A stretch of DNA of 18,904 bases from Promethearchaeota archaeon (GTDB taxonomy: Archaea > Asgardarchaeota > Lokiarchaeia > Sigyniarchaeales > SOKP01), in assembly GCA_016930515.1 (NCBI GenBank), contig JAFGGO010000094.1, positions 1-18,904 on the forward strand. The letters are read 5' to 3'. The position numbers were made by a program, and so were the translations under genes. Below the pieces are notes generated by a model that was not told where the DNA came from, made no database searches, and was given only the letters and a program-made list of their open reading frames with translations. How positions within the stretch are numbered: position 1 is the first letter of the stretch; every line of letters begins with the position of its first letter. Below are positions 3,149-18,904 of the stretch, piece after piece.

Positions 3149-4192
3149 CTAAGTGGAAAGATTAATCAATGAATGTTCTACGAATTTTAAAGGATTGTTT
3201 GCGTATCCTGAAAAATCCAACCCTCCGAGTTTATTGAGTAAATCCTCGGGGATCTGGGTTTCTTTCAACCATAAAGAAGTCAGATTCATCAAGGCTTCGA
3301 GCCCTTTCACTTCCATTATCTCATTTTCTCCAATATCGAGAGTGTGTAGATTACTTAAGGTTTCGAGTCCTTTAATTTCTCTGATGTTATTTGAAGAAAG
3401 AAATAATTTTTCCAAGTTTACCAGAGAGACCAACCCCTTGATTTCGGTAATGTCGTTTTCCTTGAGGTTTAAGATTTTAAGATTCGTTAGAGTATCGAGC
3501 CCTTCAATTATTTGTATTTGGTTTCCATTTAACCATAAGGTTTCCAAGTTTTCTAAAACCTCCAAACCTTTTATTTTGGATAACTGGCAGTTATTTAAAT
3601 ATAATTCCCTGAGTCCCATAATGTGTTTTAATCCAGTGATGTCTTTGATGGGATTTCCGCTTATGTTCAAAATCTTAAGGTTCATAAGCCTATCTAAGCC
3701 TGAGATCTGCGAAATTTGATTTCCCGAAAGCCAAAGCGCTTCGAGATTCTCTAAATGTTCGAGGTTAAAAATTTCTGTAATCATATTCCAAGAAAAATCG
3801 AGCTTTTGCAAGTTTTTAAGTTCTTCAAGACCTTCAATTTTCGTTATTTGATTACCTCTGAGGTGCAATTCCTTCAAATTTTTCAAGGCATCAAGACCTT
3901 TTATTTCAGAAATCTCGTTGCTTGTCAAATGGAGAACCTCTAAATTGCTCAAACCTTCCAGACCGGATATTGCTTTTATGTTATTACTTCCAATGTTCAG
4001 TATTTCGAGTTCGTGGAGCTTTTCCAACCCTGTGATGGCTGTAATTTCGTTCGAACTAAGCTCTAAATTTTTTAAACCCTTAAGTTTTTTAAGGCCTTGT
4101 ATTTCTTCGATATTTTTTATCTCTAACAATCCTAAATCTAAAAAACCGTCTTTCATCTCGTAGATTGTGCCATTAAATTCTACTTCCGACAT
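3149..4192 (-). CDS. Leucine-rich repeat protein, SDS22-like 22-residue repeats
   Basis: About 13 tandem 22-aa repeats of consensus LxxLxNLxxLxLxxNxIxxIxG; no signal peptide or TM segment. Confidence 0.93.
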   Translation of the reverse strand: MSEVEFNGTIYEMKDGFLDLGLLEIKNIEEIQGLKKLKGLKNLELSSNEITAITGLEKLHELEILNIGSNNIKAISGLEGLSNLEVLHLTSNEISEIKGLDALKNLKELHLRGNQITKIEGLEELKNLQKLDFSWNMITEIFNLEHLENLEALWLSGNQISQISGLDRLMNLKILNISGNPIKDITGLKHIMGLRELYLNNCQLSKIKGLEVLENLETLWLNGNQIQIIEGLDTLTNLKILNLKENDITEIKGLVSLVNLEKLFLSSNNIREIKGLETLSNLHTLDIGENEIMEVKGLEALMNLTSLWLKETQIPEDLLNKLGGLDFSGYANNPLKFVEHSLINLST

Positions 4193-4840: not shown

Positions 4841-5794
4841 CTATTCTTTCTGTTTTAATCGTTCTTTTTTCGCTTTCCTTCTATCTTCAATTTTTTCCTT
4901 TTGGTGTTGTATTCGCTCTTTCAACGAGATATGTTCGGCTTGTTCATCGTGTCTCCTGAGGTATAAGTTATCGTATTTTTCTCTTAAGGTATCATAATCT
5001 CCAACATGTTCTTTAATTACGCTTTCTAGGTTTTTTTCGAAAAACCTGTTTTTTTTAAACTTTTTTGCGGGAATTCCCACATAAATCCAATCTTTCTCGA
5101 GCACTTGACCTACTGTTGTAGCAGAAGCTGCTGCAAGAACGCAATTATCCTGAACCTCCGTACCGGGCATGATAATAGCGTGTGTTCCAATTCGAGAGTT
5201 ATCCTTGATTGTTGTCTTTCTTATAATTAAAAGATTGCCTACAATAACTGCTGACTGAATAATTGCTCCCTGTCCAACCACGACATTATTACCAAATTCT
5301 ATAAATTCGCAATCTACCCATCCTTCAAAAAGCGAGTTGGAAAACTTCGTTTTGACACCAAACATTTTAAAACAAAGATTGTCCAAAAAGGGAAACGGAA
5401 ATTTATGGGATAACCAGATAGGCCATCTTTTGATGATATTCCTTATGTTCCAATAACGATAATCCTTATCTGAGGGATCGCGAAGAAAAACTCCTTCTCG
5501 AGGTTTGTGGATTAAATTAACGAATCCTAAGAGTAATTTAGCAAACACAAGCGATACCAATACGGCTGTTAGATACATTATGAATAATACCAAGGGAAGT
5601 AATAAATAAAAATGAATGTCCCGCCACGCAAAAATAAATTGCCAATTGTACATTTCCTGCCAAAACACCCAAAATTCAAGCAAGATTGAAGCCATGCTAA
5701 CCCACATTAAGAACGCATAAAGTAATGCGTATTTTTTCTTGACCAATATGGTTGTTGTAAACGGTCCTGCTTGTATTGATGATGGTACGCTCAT
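4841..5794 (-). CDS. Membrane-anchored left-handed beta-helix (hexapeptide repeat) acyltransferase-like protein, type C' (paralog of 7706..8626)
   Basis: Two N-terminal TM helices, HKPREGVFLRDPSDKDYRYW, hexapeptide repeats (FGNNVVVGQGAII, IKDNSRIGTHAIIMPG), terminal YVGIPAK. Confidence 0.88.
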   Translation of the reverse strand: MSVPSSIQAGPFTTTILVKKKYALLYAFLMWVSMASILLEFWVFWQEMYNWQFIFAWRDIHFYLLLPLVLFIMYLTAVLVSLVFAKLLLGFVNLIHKPREGVFLRDPSDKDYRYWNIRNIIKRWPIWLSHKFPFPFLDNLCFKMFGVKTKFSNSLFEGWVDCEFIEFGNNVVVGQGAIIQSAVIVGNLLIIRKTTIKDNSRIGTHAIIMPGTEVQDNCVLAAASATTVGQVLEKDWIYVGIPAKKFKKNRFFEKNLESVIKEHVGDYDTLREKYDNLYLRRHDEQAEHISLKERIQHQKEKIEDRRKAKKERLKQKE

Positions 5795-5817
5795 TTTTTA
5801 ATCGTCTTTTTATTTAT

Positions 5818-6741
5818 TTATTCTTGGGTGATTAAGTCTTTCTTATCTTCGTCAATATTTACCTCGTGCTTTACTTCATAATAACTCTCGTTGTCGACAT
5901 CGCGCATTTTGATTATATCTCTTCTTGATTCTGCATACTTGTTTTCTTTTATCTTCTGAGGTGGTACTCCCATATAAATCCATCCCTCTTCAAATATTTG
6001 ATTGTAATTAGTAACTGATAGTGCAGCGATAACCGTGTCCTTTCCAACAATACTACCTGGAGCAATAGTGCAATGTCCGCCAAGAACAACATAATCGTCT
6101 AAAATAATTTTCTTGATTATCAAGTAATTACCAACGATCATTGAACCCATCAATGTCACGCCTTGTCCTACTAAAACATTTCTTCCCATCTTTACAAATT
6201 CTAAGTCGCACCACGCATCGTGTAAGTGGCTTGAAAAATCGAGATTTAACCCGAACCAGCGAAAACCGAGTATGTCGATAAGGGGCGTCGGAGAATTGTT
6301 CATGAACCATATAACCAGCTTTTTTATTTCAGTTCTTAAGCACCAAAATTCAAAATCCGAGTTTCCTTTTTCGGCGAGAAATATTCCTTCTTTTGGTTTA
6401 TGAATGAGGTTTATTAAAACAAGAAATAACTTACTTAAACATATACAGGATAAAATGAACAAGTAATACATTGCAAGGAGTATCAAGGGAAATAATGCGA
6501 TTTGGAGGATCCATAATAAGGGATTTTCGTTGACCGCAAACCAGATGTATTGATAAAAAACGACCCCTACAAAGAAACCGCTCAGCCATAATATGGGAAT
6601 ATAAATTATTAGGAATTTTACGCTCATCCTGCTAATTGCGCTACTCGTGGTAAAATCGAGTAAATAATCGTCCTTAGACTCTTCTATTTTAACCTGTTCT
6701 TCCATATTAACAGTTCTATCTTCTTCTTCAGATTCGATCAT
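5818..6741 (-). CDS. Membrane-anchored left-handed beta-helix acyltransferase-like protein, type B' (paralog of 8623..9558)
   Basis: Two TM helices, HKPKEGIFLAE, DAWCDLEF, hexapeptide repeats (MGRNVLVGQG, LDDYVVLGGHCTIAPG), YMGVPP. Confidence 0.88.
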   Translation of the reverse strand: MIESEEEDRTVNMEEQVKIEESKDDYLLDFTTSSAISRMSVKFLIIYIPILWLSGFFVGVVFYQYIWFAVNENPLLWILQIALFPLILLAMYYLFILSCICLSKLFLVLINLIHKPKEGIFLAEKGNSDFEFWCLRTEIKKLVIWFMNNSPTPLIDILGFRWFGLNLDFSSHLHDAWCDLEFVKMGRNVLVGQGVTLMGSMIVGNYLIIKKIILDDYVVLGGHCTIAPGSIVGKDTVIAALSVTNYNQIFEEGWIYMGVPPQKIKENKYAESRRDIIKMRDVDNESYYEVKHEVNIDEDKKDLITQE

Positions 6742-6742
6742 A

Positions 6743-7675
6743 TCAATCCGTTTCCTTTATTCCCTCATTTTTCATCAAATCCTTTTTTAAAGAAGCGAAC
6801 TTGTTTTTAAGTTCGTCATCTCTTTCCAAATCTTCCTTGGTTATTTGCAAGTATTCCATTGTTTTTCTCTTAAATATTCTACGTAAGGGAATTCCATAAT
6901 AGTAGTTATCACCCTTGACGGCGTTAAATTTTGATGCAGAGGCTAATGGTAATAAGTATGCGTTGTCGTTAATTTCGCATCCGGGGGAAATAGCATTTGA
7001 TGCCGCCATCGTAACATTATCGCCGATTTTAACTTTAAAATACGAAATATTTCCAAATGTTCCATCAACCATATGCGATGTCGTGATGCTATTTGGTCCG
7101 ATGTAGCTATTCTCTCCAATTTGTATAAATCTATCTCCGCATACTTGTTCTTCCATCGTTGATCCCTTACCAATTTTATTGGAACCAACAAAATTATACA
7201 TCCACCTGATCAACCATGGAAGTGGACCCTTGGAAAAGGCATTTTTTGGATATTTAATCATAAACGATCGAATGTGATAAAAATTCAATATCCTACTTGG
7301 AATATTACGAGGGATGACGCCATTTTTTGAAGGTTGTAGCTTTTCGCTTAAATTCCACCAGAATCGAACGATTAAAGCGACGAAAAAGAGGTGTGTTAAA
7401 TAACAAACAACTACAACTATTGGAAAAGCAATGAAAGTTATTAAGGATAATGGTTCGGTAAATAATGATATTATACTTTTCGTTTGTAATACATAAGGAT
7501 ATAGAAAAAATAATGCGTATAAAAAGAAAATAATGCTTGGAACGAAAAACGATCCTAGATATGTTGTAAAAAAGGTGAGTATATGCCAATAAGGTTGTTT
7601 CTTTATCTCTTCTTTTATTACTTCTTTAGTCCCGTTTGAGTTTTGATCGGTTTCTTCATAATTTTCTTCAAGCAA
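6743..7675 (-). CDS. Membrane-anchored left-handed beta-helix acyltransferase-like protein, type A' (paralog of 9555..10481); TTG start
   Basis: Two TM helices, GVIPRNI...YHIRSF, hexapeptide repeats (IGKGSTM, IGENSYIG, IGDNVTM), TSHMVDG, YYGIP; TTG at 7673-7675 with GGGGTA upstream. Confidence 0.87.
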   Translation of the reverse strand: MLEENYEETDQNSNGTKEVIKEEIKKQPYWHILTFFTTYLGSFFVPSIIFFLYALFFLYPYVLQTKSIISLFTEPLSLITFIAFPIVVVVCYLTHLFFVALIVRFWWNLSEKLQPSKNGVIPRNIPSRILNFYHIRSFMIKYPKNAFSKGPLPWLIRWMYNFVGSNKIGKGSTMEEQVCGDRFIQIGENSYIGPNSITTSHMVDGTFGNISYFKVKIGDNVTMAASNAISPGCEINDNAYLLPLASASKFNAVKGDNYYYGIPLRRIFKRKTMEYLQITKEDLERDDELKNKFASLKKDLMKNEGIKETD

Positions 7676-7705
7676 TAAATAAATACCCCATAAATATCCG
7701 TAATT

Positions 7706-8626
7706 TTAGGGTTCAAACCCTTTTATTAACCTTCTTTTTTCTTCTTCCTTCTTTTTTTTTAACAAGTGTTTTCGTTCCTTCCACGATAGGTCTTTGTCGT
7801 ACCATTTAGTGAATTTTTCTTCGTACTCATCTCGAAGTACTTCGATGTCTTCCAAGTTTACAATCTTCTCTTCTATATTATCTTCAAAAAATCTATTTTT
7901 TTTATATTTTACGGCTGGTGCGCCAAGATATATCCAACCCTCTTCTAGAACCTGTCCAACAGTAGTTACCGAGTTAACGGCGAGCATGCAATTCTTTTTA
8001 ATGTGCGTTCCAGGCATGACTACAGCATGGCCTCCAATCCTCACATTATCTTCTATAATTGTCTTCTTAACGATGAACAAGTTCCCAACTATCAAAGCCG
8101 ACTGAACGATACTCGCCTGACCTAAAATCACATTCTTTCCAAATTCGACTAATTCGCAATCGACCCATCCTTCAAAAAGGGAGTTCGACAAGCTTGTTTT
8201 TACTCCGAACATTTTAAAACATAGATTATCTAAAAATGGAAGGGGAAATCTATGAGATATCCACGCTGGCCACCATTTGATGGTATTTCTTAAACTCCAA
8301 AATCGATAATCCTTATTAGATGGATCTCGAAGAAAAACGCCTTCCCGAGGCTTATGAAACATTTTTACGAATATCAATAATAGTTTTGCAAAAATTAGTG
8401 AGATTAATATTGATGTGATGTAAATAAAAAAGATCATGGGAATGAGAAAAATATAGAAAAATATTGGCGGAAAAATTTGGTACGCAATTTTCCAATAGAA
8501 AAAAAACTCTATAATAGCTGATAACATTGAGATCCAGAACAGAAATAGGTAACATATAAGGTATCTTTTTTTTACCAACACTAATGAAGCAAATGGACCT
8601 GCTTTTAAACTCGCTGGAACGCTCAT
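7706..8626 (-). CDS. Membrane-anchored left-handed beta-helix acyltransferase-like protein, type C
   Basis: MSVPASLKAGPF N-terminus, HKPREGVFLRDPSNKDYRFW, SNSLFEGWVDCE, hexapeptide repeats, YLGAPA; ATGA overlap with upstream gene (8623-8626). Confidence 0.88.
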   Translation of the reverse strand: MSVPASLKAGPFASLVLVKKRYLICYLFLFWISMLSAIIEFFFYWKIAYQIFPPIFFYIFLIPMIFFIYITSILISLIFAKLLLIFVKMFHKPREGVFLRDPSNKDYRFWSLRNTIKWWPAWISHRFPLPFLDNLCFKMFGVKTSLSNSLFEGWVDCELVEFGKNVILGQASIVQSALIVGNLFIVKKTIIEDNVRIGGHAVVMPGTHIKKNCMLAVNSVTTVGQVLEEGWIYLGAPAVKYKKNRFFEDNIEEKIVNLEDIEVLRDEYEEKFTKWYDKDLSWKERKHLLKKKKEEEKRRLIKGFEP

Positions 8627-9558
8627 TCGAGTTTTCCTCCATTGTTAGTGGCTAATCCTTTTTTATCCTCATCAATATTTATTTCGTGATTCTTTTTATA
8701 TTTCCTAAGACCATCAACATCTACAATTTTTATAATCGGTTTTCTTGATTCGGCAAATTTATTTGGTTTGAGTTCGATAGCAGGAATGCCAAAATAGATC
8801 CACCCTTCTTTAAGTACTTGCATGAAATTAGTTGTAGATAATGCTCCAACTACGGAATCTGATCCAATAAAAGTTCCAGGGGAAATTGTAGCGTGTCCAC
8901 CGATAACCACATAATCGTCTAAAAAAACCTGCTTAATGATCAAATACTTTCCAACGATATTTGCACTAAATATAATCGATCCTTGTCCTACTAAACCTTT
9001 TCGTCCTATTTGAATGAACTCTGGGTCAACCCATGCGTCGTACAAGCTGCTAGAAAAATCCATTTTAATACCAAACCAACGAAACGCCCAAGCGTCTATG
9101 AACGGAATTGGAGAATTACGGGTAAGCCATAATCCTATTTTTTTTATAGCAATTCGCAAACTCCAATAGCAATAATCCTTATTTTGTCGTTCAGCAAGGA
9201 AAATACCTTCCTTTGGTAAATGAACGAGATTAATTATGATGAGAAATACCTTACAACAAATCAAAACGCCAAAAACAAAAACCACATAAATTATAAATGC
9301 TTCAAATGGAAATATTACAATTATTAATATAAATCCAAACAAATTTTCGCTAATGAATTTAAATGCGATCACGAGTGCTTCAAAATACATGTAAAATACA
9401 ATTATTGCCCCAAAACCCCCTATCCAAAAAATAAGTAAATAAACAAAAATAAATCTCGAATTTACCTGACCCAAGGCGCTACTCGTGGCAAAATCAAGCC
9501 GGAAATCCTTTTCGTCACGATTTTTATTGGCGTTCTGAAGATTTTTTTCGTTAATCAT
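8623..9558 (-). CDS. Membrane-anchored left-handed beta-helix acyltransferase-like protein, type B
   Basis: LDFATSSA, two TM helices, HLPKEGIFLAE, DAWVDPEF, hexapeptide repeats, YFGIPA; ATGA overlap with upstream gene (9555-9558). Confidence 0.88.
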   Translation of the reverse strand: MINEKNLQNANKNRDEKDFRLDFATSSALGQVNSRFIFVYLLIFWIGGFGAIIVFYMYFEALVIAFKFISENLFGFILIIVIFPFEAFIIYVVFVFGVLICCKVFLIIINLVHLPKEGIFLAERQNKDYCYWSLRIAIKKIGLWLTRNSPIPFIDAWAFRWFGIKMDFSSSLYDAWVDPEFIQIGRKGLVGQGSIIFSANIVGKYLIIKQVFLDDYVVIGGHATISPGTFIGSDSVVGALSTTNFMQVLKEGWIYFGIPAIELKPNKFAESRKPIIKIVDVDGLRKYKKNHEINIDEDKKGLATNNGGKLE

Positions 9559-10481
9559 CGTTCTTCTTGAGATATATTTTTATTATCTTCTTGTATATTT
9601 CTTGGTATTTCTTGATTTATTTTCATTGATGTTCCAAGTTTGATTTGTTCGGGAGATAGTGCTAAATACTTTTGAATCTTCTTTATCGTTAATTTTCTCA
9701 TGGGCACGCCAAAATAATAATTCTTTCCGAGTACATTGAAATGCTTACCCGCATGGGCTGCTGGTAACAAGACAGAATTATCTCCTATTACACCTCCAGG
9801 ACCTGTGGCGTTCCATCCGCCCATCGTAACATTCTCTCCAATTTTAATTTTAAAATTTGAAATGTTCCCAAATATTCCCTCAACAACATGAGATGTAAGC
9901 ACGGAATTTACTCCTATATAGACATTCTTTCCAGTTTCTAAATATTTATCTGCACATACTTGCTCCTCTATTGTAGTACCTTTCCCAAGAGAATTAGTTT
10001 TCACGAAATTATATAACCAAGTTGTTAACCACGGAAATAATCCTTTTGAAAACATGTATTTTGGATATTTTATAATAAAAGAGCGAAGGTGGTAATAATT
10101 TAAAGTCTTGCTATGAATGTTCCTTGGGATGATACCGTCTCTTGAAGGGGACCTCTTTTCGGTTATTGCCCATAAAACGCGCGTTATTAATGCAATTAGA
10201 AACAAGCGTAAAAGGTAACAAAATAAGAAAACTATTGGGGTAATTAAAAGAATTAAAAGAGAATCTAATTGTGAAATTATAGCTAGAAAATTCTCAGCGA
10301 GCAAGATTTTTGGATAGAATAGGAATATGAAAAATAAAATGAATAATACACCCGCAACTATTAGCGACCCTAAATAAACTATGAAAAAGGACAAGAGAAA
10401 CCAGTGAAAATGAAGCTTTACTTCGTGCTTTGGTACTTCTAAATTAGTATTTTCGCTCTCGATTCTCTTTTCTGTCAACAT
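9555..10481 (-). CDS. Membrane-anchored left-handed beta-helix acyltransferase-like protein, type A (first gene of the six-gene operon)
   Basis: Two TM helices, GIIPRNI...YHLRSF, EEQVCAD, TSHVVEG, hexapeptide repeats, YFGVP; GAGGT SD upstream of the ATG. Confidence 0.88.
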   Translation of the reverse strand: MLTEKRIESENTNLEVPKHEVKLHFHWFLLSFFIVYLGSLIVAGVLFILFFIFLFYPKILLAENFLAIISQLDSLLILLITPIVFLFCYLLRLFLIALITRVLWAITEKRSPSRDGIIPRNIHSKTLNYYHLRSFIIKYPKYMFSKGLFPWLTTWLYNFVKTNSLGKGTTIEEQVCADKYLETGKNVYIGVNSVLTSHVVEGIFGNISNFKIKIGENVTMGGWNATGPGGVIGDNSVLLPAAHAGKHFNVLGKNYYFGVPMRKLTIKKIQKYLALSPEQIKLGTSMKINQEIPRNIQEDNKNISQEER

Positions 10482-15733: not shown

Positions 15734-17053
15734 TTGAAAATAAACGAAAATTCGTATTACATTGAGACTTACGGTTGTGTTTCAAACAAAGCTGACTCGC
15801 TCATCATGTCTGAAGTTTTGGATAAAGCGGGCTTTACGAAGACTACGCTTGAGGCTGCACAATATGTTATTGTAAACACTTGCGCTGTAAAAGAACAAAC
15901 TGAAAATAAGATAAAACAACGGTTGGGAGAATTAAACGCAATATTTGGGGCACTCCCTAATAAATATATTATAATTGCTGGCTGCTTGCCTCATGTGGAA
16001 TCTGGTTATGAAAAAAAACTCAAAAAAATAATTCCTTCCTATTCTGCCATTATTGATTTGGATAATATAAACGAGATTCCTGAAATATTTCGAATGTTAA
16101 AAAATAGTGCTAGGAACCAAATCTTTCCTGCAAATAAATCGATCGATAAAGCCAAGATCATAGTTAGTCCGCACCATAATAAGATAACGGGAATCGTGCC
16201 AATCTCAGAAGGTTGTCTTGGTTCGTGCACCTATTGTTGCGTTAAAAACGCTCGAGGTCGTTTAGTTTGTTATGATCCTCAAAATATATTTAATAATGTT
16301 AAGTACCAGCTCGAGCATGGCGTAAGACAGGTATATCTAACTTCGCAAGATTGTAGCACTTATCAATACGGGAACATTCGTCTCGTTGACCTGATAAAGG
16401 ATATTAGCTCGATAAAAAAAGATTTTTTTTTGAGGATGGGGATGATCAATCCAAGTTTCTTAATTGAAAATATATGTCAATTAGAACAAATTTTTAAGAT
16501 GAGAAACATCTATCAATTTTTACATGTGCCCATCCAATCGGGAAGTAATCTCGTTTTAGAACGAATGGAACGGCCTTATCTCATTTCTGATATCGTAGAA
16601 CCGCTTGAAAAGTTACGAAAACAATTTCCCTTTTTGACTATCTCTACCGATGTGATCTGCGGATTTCCTGGAGAAACTGAATACGATTTTTATCGAACGA
16701 TAAATTTCATAAAATGGTTAAAACCCGAGATACTGAATATTTCAAAGTTCACGCCGCGTCCAGGCACGAAAGCTAAGCACATGGAACAACTAGACGGGAA
16801 GGTTATAAAAAAGCGCTCTCTTCGAATTTCAAATGTCTTCAGGATGAGCCTGGAAAGAACAAACGAAAAGTGGTTGAATTGGAGCGGGAAGGTGTTAATG
16901 CTTCACCATGGACAAAAAGAGGGGCAAGCATTTGGGAGAAATTTTGCATATAAAAATGTGTTTATAGAAGATTACACTGGAACATTTGGAGAATTCGTTA
17001 GAGTAAAAATAACTCATGTTGATGGTTTTAACCTATTTGGGACTATTACTTAA
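15734..17053 (+). CDS. MiaB-like radical SAM tRNA methylthiotransferase, probably archaeal/eukaryotic t6A37 methylthiotransferase (e-MtaB/CDKAL1 type); TTG start
   Basis: UPF0004 domain (IETYGC..N.ADS, VNTCAV, IAGC), radical SAM motif CLGSCTYC, HVPIQSGS, DVICGFPGET, C-terminal TRAM-like domain. Confidence 0.9.
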   Translation: MKINENSYYIETYGCVSNKADSLIMSEVLDKAGFTKTTLEAAQYVIVNTCAVKEQTENKIKQRLGELNAIFGALPNKYIIIAGCLPHVESGYEKKLKKIIPSYSAIIDLDNINEIPEIFRMLKNSARNQIFPANKSIDKAKIIVSPHHNKITGIVPISEGCLGSCTYCCVKNARGRLVCYDPQNIFNNVKYQLEHGVRQVYLTSQDCSTYQYGNIRLVDLIKDISSIKKDFFLRMGMINPSFLIENICQLEQIFKMRNIYQFLHVPIQSGSNLVLERMERPYLISDIVEPLEKLRKQFPFLTISTDVICGFPGETEYDFYRTINFIKWLKPEILNISKFTPRPGTKAKHMEQLDGKVIKKRSLRISNVFRMSLERTNEKWLNWSGKVLMLHHGQKEGQAFGRNFAYKNVFIEDYTGTFGEFVRVKITHVDGFNLFGTIT

Positions 17054-17070
17054 TTTAAGTTTAAAAGAAT

Positions 17071-17084
17071 AAAATAAAAAAAAA
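17071..17084 (-). terminator. Oligo-T tract, probable terminator of the vhuA-hdrCB-vhuU transcript
   Basis: Minus strand reads TTTTTTTTTATTTT about 25 nt downstream of the SECIS-like hairpin, just before the convergent methylthiotransferase stop. Confidence 0.5.
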
Positions 17085-17108
17085 GTTAGTTTTAAGCCCG
17101 TGCGAGAG

Positions 17109-17152
17109 CCAGTCCCGTCCAATCCAAATTTTTTATTGAACGATCAACCTAA
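17109..17152 (-). promoter_or_regulatory. SECIS-like element (eukaryote-type kink-turn hairpin) overlapping the vhuU stop codon
   Basis: Minus-strand RNA UUAG-GUU-GA-U-CGUUCAAU-AAAAAAUUUGG-AUUGGACG-G-GA-CUGG: lower stem UUAG/CUGG, 3-nt bulge, tandem GA/GA, 8-bp upper stem (7 WC + 1 GU), loop starting with an A run. Folded by hand only. Confidence 0.75.
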
Positions 17153-17293
17153 ACCAACATTTAACTTTCGAGAATAGATCTCTTCGCCCCGCTCGTCAAC
17201 GACCGTGACGTGTGCGGCGCACGATAGTCAGCAATCAAAACATCTGACAATCATTTCCAATACATTAACTACTCCTTCTGGTACGTCACTCAT
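17144..17293 (-). CDS. vhuU: Selenocysteine-containing small subunit VhuU of F420-non-reducing [NiFeSe] hydrogenase (49 aa; Sec22 from in-frame TGA at 17228-17230)
   Basis: Hand translation MSDVPEGVVNVLEMIVRCFDC-U-LSCAAHVTVVDERGEEIYSRKLNVGLG*; matches the hydrogenase large-subunit C-terminal motif (E..R.yDPCxSCAxH) with TGA at the first ligand position; SD-like GAAGTGA upstream; starts 29 nt after hdrB. Confidence 0.92.
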
Positions 17294-17322
17294 CTTATTA
17301 TCACTTCGCATTTAAATTTGGT

Positions 17323-18201
17323 TTATTCGAGACCGTGTTTTTCTAACAGCTCCTTTGGCCTGGAACGATGGAATTTCATGCCCATTTCGTCCGATTTTAT
17401 ACCAAAAGACAAAGCCAAAAGCTCGGTTAAGTACAAGATCGGTAATCCGTAACTCTTGCCTGAGATCTTTTCTGCCTTTTTCTGGTTGGTATCAAACTGT
17501 TGGAAGCACGCTGGGCAAATCACGACAAACGCTTCTGCACCTGCCGCAATTGCACTATCCATTTTATTAGCAAGGATTTGCATGGATGGTTCTTCTTCTG
17601 TATTTCCAACGCCAGAACCACAACATAGCATTTCTTCCTCGTAATCCACGGGTGTTGCGCCGGTTGCCGCCACGAGTTCGCGCAACTTTTTAGGCTTCAT
17701 GGGATCGTCCGTCTGAACAAGTTCGGAAGGTCGATTGTAGTGGCAGCCAGTATGACACGCAACTTTTAGGCCTGTGAGTTCTTTGGTGACCATTTCCTTG
17801 ATCTTTTCCACACCGACTTCGTGTAAAACTTCCACGAAATGCTTTACGGTGGTGGTTCCTTTAAATTCTCTTCCTACTGCGCTCAGAATCTTGTTTATCT
17901 TTGCTTTTTCGTGTTCGTCGTGGTTTAGTTCCTTGTTAACGACCTTGAGCGTTTGAAAGCACCCGTTACACAAGGATACAATGTCTTTTCCTTCTTGTTC
18001 TGCAATCGTGAGGTTTCTGGCGCCCATTGCCAACCAGCTCGTATGATCAACCGAATTAAATCCCACGGGATCGGGACAACAAGCGAATGGAGCTTCCGAT
18101 GTTTTCACGCCGAGCTTGTCAAATACCTTTCTCGCTGACGCTTCAATAAAAGGAATCCTGTTTCCAATCGTACAACCTTGGAACATCTTATATTCTGTCA
18201 T
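17323..18201 (-). CDS. hdrB: Heterodisulfide reductase subunit B (CCG domains)
   Basis: FQGC, CCP, CNGC, HTGCH, CCG and CPAC motifs of two cysteine-rich CCG domains; adjacent to hdrC; GGAGG SD. Confidence 0.93.
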   Translation of the reverse strand: MTEYKMFQGCTIGNRIPFIEASARKVFDKLGVKTSEAPFACCPDPVGFNSVDHTSWLAMGARNLTIAEQEGKDIVSLCNGCFQTLKVVNKELNHDEHEKAKINKILSAVGREFKGTTTVKHFVEVLHEVGVEKIKEMVTKELTGLKVACHTGCHYNRPSELVQTDDPMKPKKLRELVAATGATPVDYEEEMLCCGSGVGNTEEEPSMQILANKMDSAIAAGAEAFVVICPACFQQFDTNQKKAEKISGKSYGLPILYLTELLALSFGIKSDEMGMKFHRSRPKELLEKHGLE

Positions 18202-18214
18202 CTTTATTCCTCCA

Positions 18215-18709
18215 TTATTTCTTTAAAATTACATTTAATTTTGTTTCGTTTAAGATTTTTTGAACCTCTTCAACACTAGGTTCTTCTACCTTGGGAAGGC
18301 CCAGTTGTTCCCTTCGCTTCTCAATAGCGGGTTGCATCGGAATTGCTTTTCCAGCGTCGTAAATCGTGGATGCTTGTGTCGTATAATAATCAGGACCTTC
18401 TCCCCTAGCAATGCTCATGTTTTTTAAGACTGTAAATATTTCCGTGAGCTCGATTTTCTGTGGACAGATCTCGTCGCAAGTATCGCAAACAGTACATCCC
18501 CAGATTGCAAAATTGTTTTTTTGACCATTGAAGACATTCAAACCCAAGAACGATAGCATTATATTTCCTCTCGGGTTGTATCTATCTGGTGCAACTTTTG
18601 AAACGGGGCACACATCAGTACATCGACCGCACTGGTAGCAATATTTTAAAGCGTCTTTTATGTTAGCATCCATTGCTTTTTTTCTAAGTTCGTAATCTAC
18701 ACTTACCAT
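18215..18709 (-). CDS. hdrC: Heterodisulfide reductase subunit C (2x[4Fe-4S])
   Basis: CYQCGRCTDVCP and WGCTVCDTCDEICP ferredoxin motifs; directly upstream of hdrB. Confidence 0.92.
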   Translation of the reverse strand: MVSVDYELRKKAMDANIKDALKYCYQCGRCTDVCPVSKVAPDRYNPRGNIMLSFLGLNVFNGQKNNFAIWGCTVCDTCDEICPQKIELTEIFTVLKNMSIARGEGPDYYTTQASTIYDAGKAIPMQPAIEKRREQLGLPKVEEPSVEEVQKILNETKLNVILKK

Positions 18710-18747
18710 TATTTTTCACTTAAAATATTATTTGATTGGTAAATAAA

Positions 18748-18904
18748 TTATTTGATCCACGGATCCGGAAGCTTCAATCCGTCCAGTGCCTTGTCTTCGA
18801 ACACCTGCTTTGCCACGTGCATGAGGGTTTTTTCGATACCGGCGATGTTGTGATTCGTCGCCACCAGCAGGTTGGCCTTCTTGCACATGCCTTGAGCGTC
18901 GGAC
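18748..18904 (-). CDS. vhuA: 3' end (partial, runs off window) of a [NiFe]-hydrogenase large subunit, VhuA/MvhA type, lacking the C-terminal DPCxxC motif
   Basis: Hand translation ...SDAQGMCKKANLLVATNHNIAGIEKTLMHVAKQVFEDKALDGLKLPDPWIK*; D..G...KANL.VAT.HN is the conserved late segment of group 3 (Mvh/Vhu) large subunits; TAA at 18748-18750. Confidence 0.8.
   Translation of the reverse strand, partial: SDAQGMCKKANLLVATNHNIAGIEKTLMHVAKQVFEDKALDGLKLPDPWIK

Follow-up and report, generated by a model that had tools for sequence, protein, structure and literature searches.

A probable Loki-type SECIS element with a three-way junction fold at the 3′ end of vhuU in a Promethearchaeota archaeon

Introduction

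Within the 18,904-nucleotide stretch of Promethearchaeota DNA analysed here (the window), a short gene on the minus strand contains UGA twice in one reading frame: once at the position of a Ni-ligating residue, where it would be read as selenocysteine (Sec), and once as its stop codon, which lies in the core of a putative SECIS element. How can one message use UGA in both ways, and what kind of element carries a stop codon in its core?

As first defined, the lokiSECIS combines the core AUGA (“always AUGA”) with a stem of 9 bp, a loop of 11 nt that starts with five A and ends with G, and GA on the 3′ side, which is replaced by AA in the elements of VhuU (Mariotti et al, 2016, Mol Biol Evol 33:2441, PMC4989117). 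In its published consensus, the base before UGA is A, rarely G. The same authors reported that the core UGA of Lokiarchaeota VhuU.1 doubles as the stop codon, accounted for its not being recoded by a minimal-distance rule and gave essentially the explanation that the ribosome melts the element (PMC4989117). The element of frhA and vhuU was later named the Asgard type I eSECIS-like structure, with the model NNGAN...[G/A]ANN; in that account the AUGA motif is frequently overlapped by the stop codon, and frhA elements have lower stems with UGG/CCA-type pairs (Huang et al, 2024, PMC11227280). Both studies draw Asgard SECIS elements as a hairpin to which no more than a lower stem is added, and SBP2 was not found in their Asgard searches (PMC4989117, PMC11227280). 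Since the layout was published for VhuU.1 in 2016 (PMC4989117) and repeated since (PMC11227280), the placement of the stop codon in the SECIS core cannot count as new in itself.

Results

The vhuU gene (17293–17144 on the minus strand, stop codon included) has 49 codons by our own translation. Its translated product is the Sec-containing C-terminal piece of a [NiFe(Se)] hydrogenase large subunit with the motif D-C-U-x-x-C-x-x-H. The Sec codon is the UGA at 17230–17228 (codon 22), which takes the position of the first Ni-ligating Cys and aligns with the Cys of DPCxxC; 90 relatives have TGA and one Cys homologue has TGT at this place. The second UGA (17146–17144) stands in frame with it, 28 codons downstream, and terminates the gene. 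An earlier note, made from the sequence alone, had read UGA in vhuU both as Sec and as stop and had located the stop in the SECIS core, and both readings hold at these coordinates.

With Sec read as Cys, the best NCBIfam family of the peptide is VhuU (NF041786, E = 3.9e-13), at a score of 49 bits that does not reach the curated cut-off of 70 bits, and a Pfam search with the 49-residue peptide gave no match. Further matches of the peptide are the C-terminal ends of MvhA/Vhu large subunits and 9sfi_M, a mature methanococcal VhuU chain whose 27 residues align to residues 4–29 of the product, so that the tail of the vhuU product lies beyond the mature peptide. The identification as vhuU rests on NF041786, the motif, the PDB matches and the vhuA fragment found upstream.

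That fragment is the 3′ end of vhuA (18903–18748, cut by the contig end); it is followed on the same minus strand by hdrC (18709–18215) and hdrB (18201–17323), and vhuU starts after a gap of 29 nt. The four genes probably form one operon. The order vhuA-hdrC-hdrB-vhuU (17144–18903), by which two pieces of a hydrogenase large subunit are separated by hdrCB, is also present in at least three other loci (L016, L026 and L030), and hdrB adjoins vhuU in 29 of 30 related loci, downstream of it rather than upstream in most of the rows looked at. Every one of the 90 Sec-vhuU genes examined has a Cys next to Sec (D-C-U, at 17236–17231 on the minus strand in the window), in place of the D-P-C of other hydrogenases; this vicinal pair is therefore a phylum-wide trait of vhuU and not a peculiarity of this genome. 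Elsewhere in the window, six co-oriented and tightly packed ORFs of about 306–317 aa each fill positions 4841–10481 of the minus strand.

The coordinates that the earlier note had given proved exact on the minus strand. The stop UGA (17146–17144) doubles as the UGA of a SECIS core UUGA, of the NUGA...GA kink-turn type. The 3-nt bulge GUU (17148–17146) precedes the 5′ GA of the core (17145–17144), both bases of which lie inside the stop codon and pair, as tandem G.A/A.G, with the 3′ GA at 17114–17113, the partners of A17144 and G17145. The bulged strand of the kink-turn thus comprises 17150–17146 (C-stem A17150 and G17149, bulge G17148, U17147 and U17146) and the non-bulged strand 17114–17111 (G17114 and A17113, then C-stem C17112 and U17111). 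Above it stands P2 (17143–17115), the SECIS upper helix with its apical loop, in which 17143–17135 pairs with 17123–17115 over 9 bp with the first U.G included and over eight Watson–Crick or wobble pairs without it; the loop (17134–17124) has 11 nt, with six A at its start and GG at its end.

Two further helices surround this arm. P1, the outer helix of the junction in the RNAalifold consensus, has its 5′ strand (GUUGGUUU, 17158–17151, minus strand) in the Val-Gly-Leu codons and its 3′ strand (17092–17085) in the 3′UTR, with seven pairs joining 17158–17152 to 17091–17085. P3 is a G+C-rich side hairpin (17110–17095) with, in the minimum free energy (MFE) fold, 5 bp (17110–17106 with 17099–17095) and the 6-nt loop UCGCAC. 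The junction starts 72 nt downstream of the Sec UGA. Directly after P1 follows a run of nine U (17084–17076), likely an archaeal transcription stop to judge from the sequence, and a convergent gene ends at 17053. No RNA runs matched the interval 16900–17900, for which two metatranscriptomes of the same study gave nothing either; the only dataset that matched there is the likely source metagenome.

The MFE fold of the single sequence is no more stable than those of shuffled sequences (z = −0.93), and stability alone is therefore uninformative on the vhuU element. As to the drawn fold, which had a lower stem of UUAG (17152–17149) and CUGG (17112–17109), its bulge, GA core, upper helix and loop stand. 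The two outer pairs of its lower stem (U17152.G17109 and U17151.G17110) were rejected: they are specific to this sequence and not conserved, and they compete with the conserved P1 and P3. Because of this clash, the lower stem of the kink-turn is reduced to two or three pairs, and the element becomes a three-way junction.

When 400 genomes of the phylum were searched in six frames, 321 gave a vhuU match, and 90 Sec forms were taken from AT-rich and GC-rich families. The earlier note had asked whether the stop is always TGA at this position: in 89 of the 90 Sec-vhuU genes, it is a TGA placed exactly 28 codons after Sec and inside the NUGA core. The exception (L027, on contig C58 of genome G185) has a 2-nt insertion before the core that brings up a TAG one codon earlier and leaves the SECIS otherwise intact, which could be due either to misassembly or to a real separation of the stop from the core. 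In L076, the only Cys homologue examined (with TGT), the gene ends with TAA after 29 codons instead of 28 and lacks the SECIS element.

The base before UGA is A in 81 of 89 orthologues, U in seven and C in one. The UUGA of the window, which the earlier note had marked as a departure from eukaryotic SECIS, is thus real and a minority variant. The variable base occupies the synonymous third position of the last Gly codon. A link between the U before and the U after UGA was considered and rejected, as AUGAU forms also occur.

Covariation, which the earlier note had suggested checking, was assessed on 89 distinct vhuU 3′ ends, with a RNAalifold consensus, 500 shuffles and controls with slid partners. 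The consensus contains the three helices, of which P1 and P2 covary strongly. Counted on the junction as described above, paired cells make up 93.8% of the total, compared with 80.7% in shuffles and 28–45% with slid partners, and 263 cells are changed on both sides, compared with 74 in shuffles. In none of the 500 shuffles were the observed values reached for paired cells, doubly changed cells, further pair types or covariation score; 37 did reach the observed number of pairs with changes on both sides. All nine pairs of P2 show changes on both sides among orthologues, as do six of the seven pairs of P1, in which 96% of cells are paired. In the 66 genes that share the VGLG tail, silent third-position changes in the Val and Gly codons go together with changes of the partner base in the 3′UTR: the third base of the Val codon and its partner are U-A in 51 and A-U in 11 genes, those of the Gly codon U-A in 38 and C-G in 24.

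The kink-turn is more uniform. Of its C-stem, the G(−1b)–C(−1n) pair below the bulge is present in 88 of 89 orthologues and the A–U pair in 62; the third bulge base, L3, is U in all 89. Among the core purines, G is found in 89 and A in 87, position 1n is A in 88, and the fourth purine, 2n, is G in 70 and A in 19. The C–G pairs and the loop G of P3 are likewise invariant or nearly so in the 89 orthologues, its loop keeping an invariant G and a near-invariant C. RNAalifold places P3 in a register of two pairs with an 8-nt loop, the alternative having at least three pairs and a 6-nt loop; as these pairs are constant in vhuU, the gene gives no means of choosing between the two registers. At the place of P3, the genome's other seven SECIS elements have a hairpin with a different stem sequence and a similar GC-containing loop, and the three-way junction is common to all eight.

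These further elements correspond to what the earlier note had proposed to look for after hdrA, vhuD and selD. A strict pattern, which required TGA, a helix of 9 bp with no more than one mismatch, the loop AAAAA.....G of 11 nt, and GA or AA, has seven matches in the 4-Mb genome, where about 0.2 would be expected (five 4-Mb second-order Markov simulations gave 0, 0, 0, 0 and 1), and all seven lie at the 3′ ends of selenoprotein genes. The six other than that of vhuU follow SelD, three HdrA-VhuD pairs, a lone HdrA with three Sec and a small unlisted gene with the motif A-U-G-U-U-G. A covariance model of the vhuU junction (R1), built from the 89 orthologous 3′ ends, retrieves every other SECIS of the genome (E = 1e-12 to 2e-3) and has a single strong match in the window (17168–17062, 82 bits, E = 1e-22), the next best scoring 9 bits; there is accordingly no better SECIS elsewhere on the vhuU transcript, a finding that would have spoken against the earlier reading.

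Some of these loci have features of their own. A second copy of vhuU in the same genome (G000 contig C145, 38217–38363, minus strand; locus L097) encodes a 96% identical protein 200 nt from the contig end and has its own junction SECIS, with a UUGA core, one stem mismatch and an R1 score of 90.7 bits. It escaped the strict pattern because its loop starts with ACAAAA, and was recovered by protein search and by the covariance model. The small gene with A-U-G-U-U-G (L002, 3109–3564, plus strand; G000 contig C43 around 4861) contains three in-frame UGA, and here too the terminating UGA belongs to a SECIS core, of the AUGA form. The lone HdrA (L006, 1474–3453, plus strand) also has three in-frame UGA and no VhuD behind it; its own SECIS lies at 3522–3619, 89 nt after the stop; for the other three HdrA genes, the SECIS stands behind VhuD and is shared with it. 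The Sec codons of HdrA in this genome are served by SECIS elements about 2 kb away. Given this distance, and the 29 codons of the Cys homologue, the 28-codon spacing in vhuU may reflect the length of the hydrogenase propeptide and not a need of the SECIS.

Compared with the published lokiSECIS, the element belongs to the same gene family and agrees in its 9-bp stem, its 11-nt loop with an A-rich start (the first five bases mostly A) and a final G, and its UGA core that is also the stop; its GA...[G/A]A core is formed by 17145–17144 and 17114–17113, and it lies at the 3′ end of a gene whose in-frame UGA, vhuU codon 22, aligns to Cys. It differs in having U where A (rarely G) precedes UGA, hence UUGA instead of AUGA, GA on the 3′ side where VhuU elements have AA, G instead of A as the penultimate loop base, and a three-way junction with a conserved side hairpin instead of the published hairpin. 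The earlier description of a Loki-type, eukaryote-like kink-turn SECIS holds.

The resemblance to eukaryotic SECIS has limits. Rfam scans of the whole window and of 17040–17240 alone gave no match to a SECIS family at E up to 10. Eukaryotic type I elements (Rfam SECIS_1 and relatives), which are bound by SBP2, have an upper helix of about 12–15 bp, compared with 9 bp here, a real departure that the earlier note had remarked on, and they further differ from the window's element in its U before UGA, its overlap with coding sequence and its three-way junction. By model and by helix length, the vhuU element is not a member of a eukaryotic SECIS family. With the vhuU SECIS of Methanococcales and Methanopyrus it shares the gene, the Sec position and the location at the 3′ end of the message, but these carry a GAA_A bulge below a 3-bp G+C stem in place of a kink-turn, and between 17158 and 17085 there is neither a GAA trinucleotide nor an upper stem of three G–C pairs.

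Canonical kink-turns include Kt-7 and those of box C/D RNAs, and kink-turns within three-way junctions are exemplified by the “k-junction” of the TPP riboswitch. As a sequence pattern, the 89 orthologues contain all parts of a kink-turn (C-stem pair, 3-nt bulge, tandem G.A/A.G and NC stem), with the Watson–Crick pair and the other key positions near-invariant as in the canonical cases. As in the k-junction, a third helix joins next to a short C-stem; in the window it joins two pairs below the kink and not at the kink.

Discussion

The element at the 3′ end of vhuU is very probably a SECIS of the Loki type (Asgard type I “eSECIS-like”), folded as a compact three-way junction. Its sequence, geometry, covariation and strict link to Sec genes are observed, and from these, by comparison with known elements, we infer its function. 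In the proposed fold, P1 would join the last sense codons, Val-Gly-Leu, to the 3′UTR; next would come the kink-turn, with its invariant G–C pair, 3-nt bulge and tandem G.A/A.G pairs, then the 9-bp P2 with its A-rich 11-nt loop, and the short G+C hairpin P3 would close the junction. At the moment when the Sec UGA occupies the A site, the junction downstream would still be intact and would recruit the Sec-specific elongation factor (EFSec) and Sec-tRNA, either directly or via a kink-turn binder, and Sec would be put at the Ni-ligating position. When the ribosome arrives at the stop 28 codons later, it would have unwound P1 and the kink-turn, and its entry channel would be occupied by the 5′ strand of P2. 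As no SECIS would then be left at the second UGA, this codon would be read as a stop; such melting is mechanically reasonable. The tail after the conserved His is probably a propeptide removed at hydrogenase maturation, and its cleavage would leave the tail codons free to double as RNA structure. As to the factors, only two ORFs with an L7Ae domain, of 125 and 128 aa, are present in the genome, and no SBP2-like protein is evident in it.

The coincidence of stop and core might have no role of its own: the UGA would be fixed by the RNA motif and the frame by the protein, so that an in-frame core UGA simply is the terminator, with no need of a melting safeguard other than the general failure of recoding at a UGA too near the SECIS. 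We hold this for rather doubtful, though far from negligible. It agrees with the SelD and VhuD genes of the same genome, which end with UAA or UAG 2–25 nt before cores of the same SECIS type and thereby indicate that the SECIS does not need a stop codon in its core in order to function; with the insertion in L027, behind whose earlier TAG the core persists; and with the published account, which invokes a minimal-distance rule and not a dedicated device (PMC4989117). It fits less well with the retention of the overlap by 89 of 90 genes across AT-rich and GC-rich classes, which goes beyond simple inheritance given the many indels at other places of the element. The difference from melting at the stop is one of emphasis only, and sequence cannot separate the two.

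Recoding of the second UGA at a useful rate, which would add a Sec-containing C-terminal extension, is in our judgement very improbable. The frame does stay open for 28 codons past the vhuU stop in the window, and EFSec and Sec-tRNA are present in the cell, but the open frame beyond the stop extends over anything from 2 to 79 codons in the 90 orthologues, 23 of which have a second stop within three codons, one- and two-base indels occur among them just downstream of the stop, and the bases there are constrained as paired RNA and not as codons. The ribosome would, moreover, have to traverse the very element that directs recoding. Still less credible is a hairpin unrelated to Sec, such as an L7Ae-binding regulatory site or the stem of an operon terminator, which the textbook kink-turn pattern and the run of nine U after the structure might suggest: the element follows every selenoprotein gene found in the genome as well as the 90 Sec-vhuU genes and is missing from the Cys homologue, and in most relatives it is further genes, not a U-run, that come after it.

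We return to the Loki-type SECIS folded as a three-way junction. This junction is the only part that goes beyond the published accounts (PMC4989117, PMC11227280 and a 2026 review), none of which, nor a text search, yielded a description of a third arm of the Asgard SECIS. It is a tentative proposal, with nearly as much to be said for it as against it, that the functional Asgard SECIS is in general such a junction, its kink-turn arm clamped between the outer helix and the side hairpin, and that the loop of P3 may offer a second recognition point for a factor that replaces SBP2.

The junction bears on experimental design, as constructs should carry the outer helix and the side hairpin and not the published stem-loop alone. 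For reporters of Asgard Sec decoding, the 90 genes with their fixed 28-codon spacing, their synonymous sites that covary with the 3′UTR, and the junction common to all eight SECIS of this genome, may provide a base for comparison. The window itself adds one more well-supported lokiSECIS, of the minority variant with a UUGA core, which shows that the nucleotide preceding UGA can vary with the choice of Gly codon. Signals of the class to which the element belongs link archaeal with eukaryotic selenocysteine decoding.
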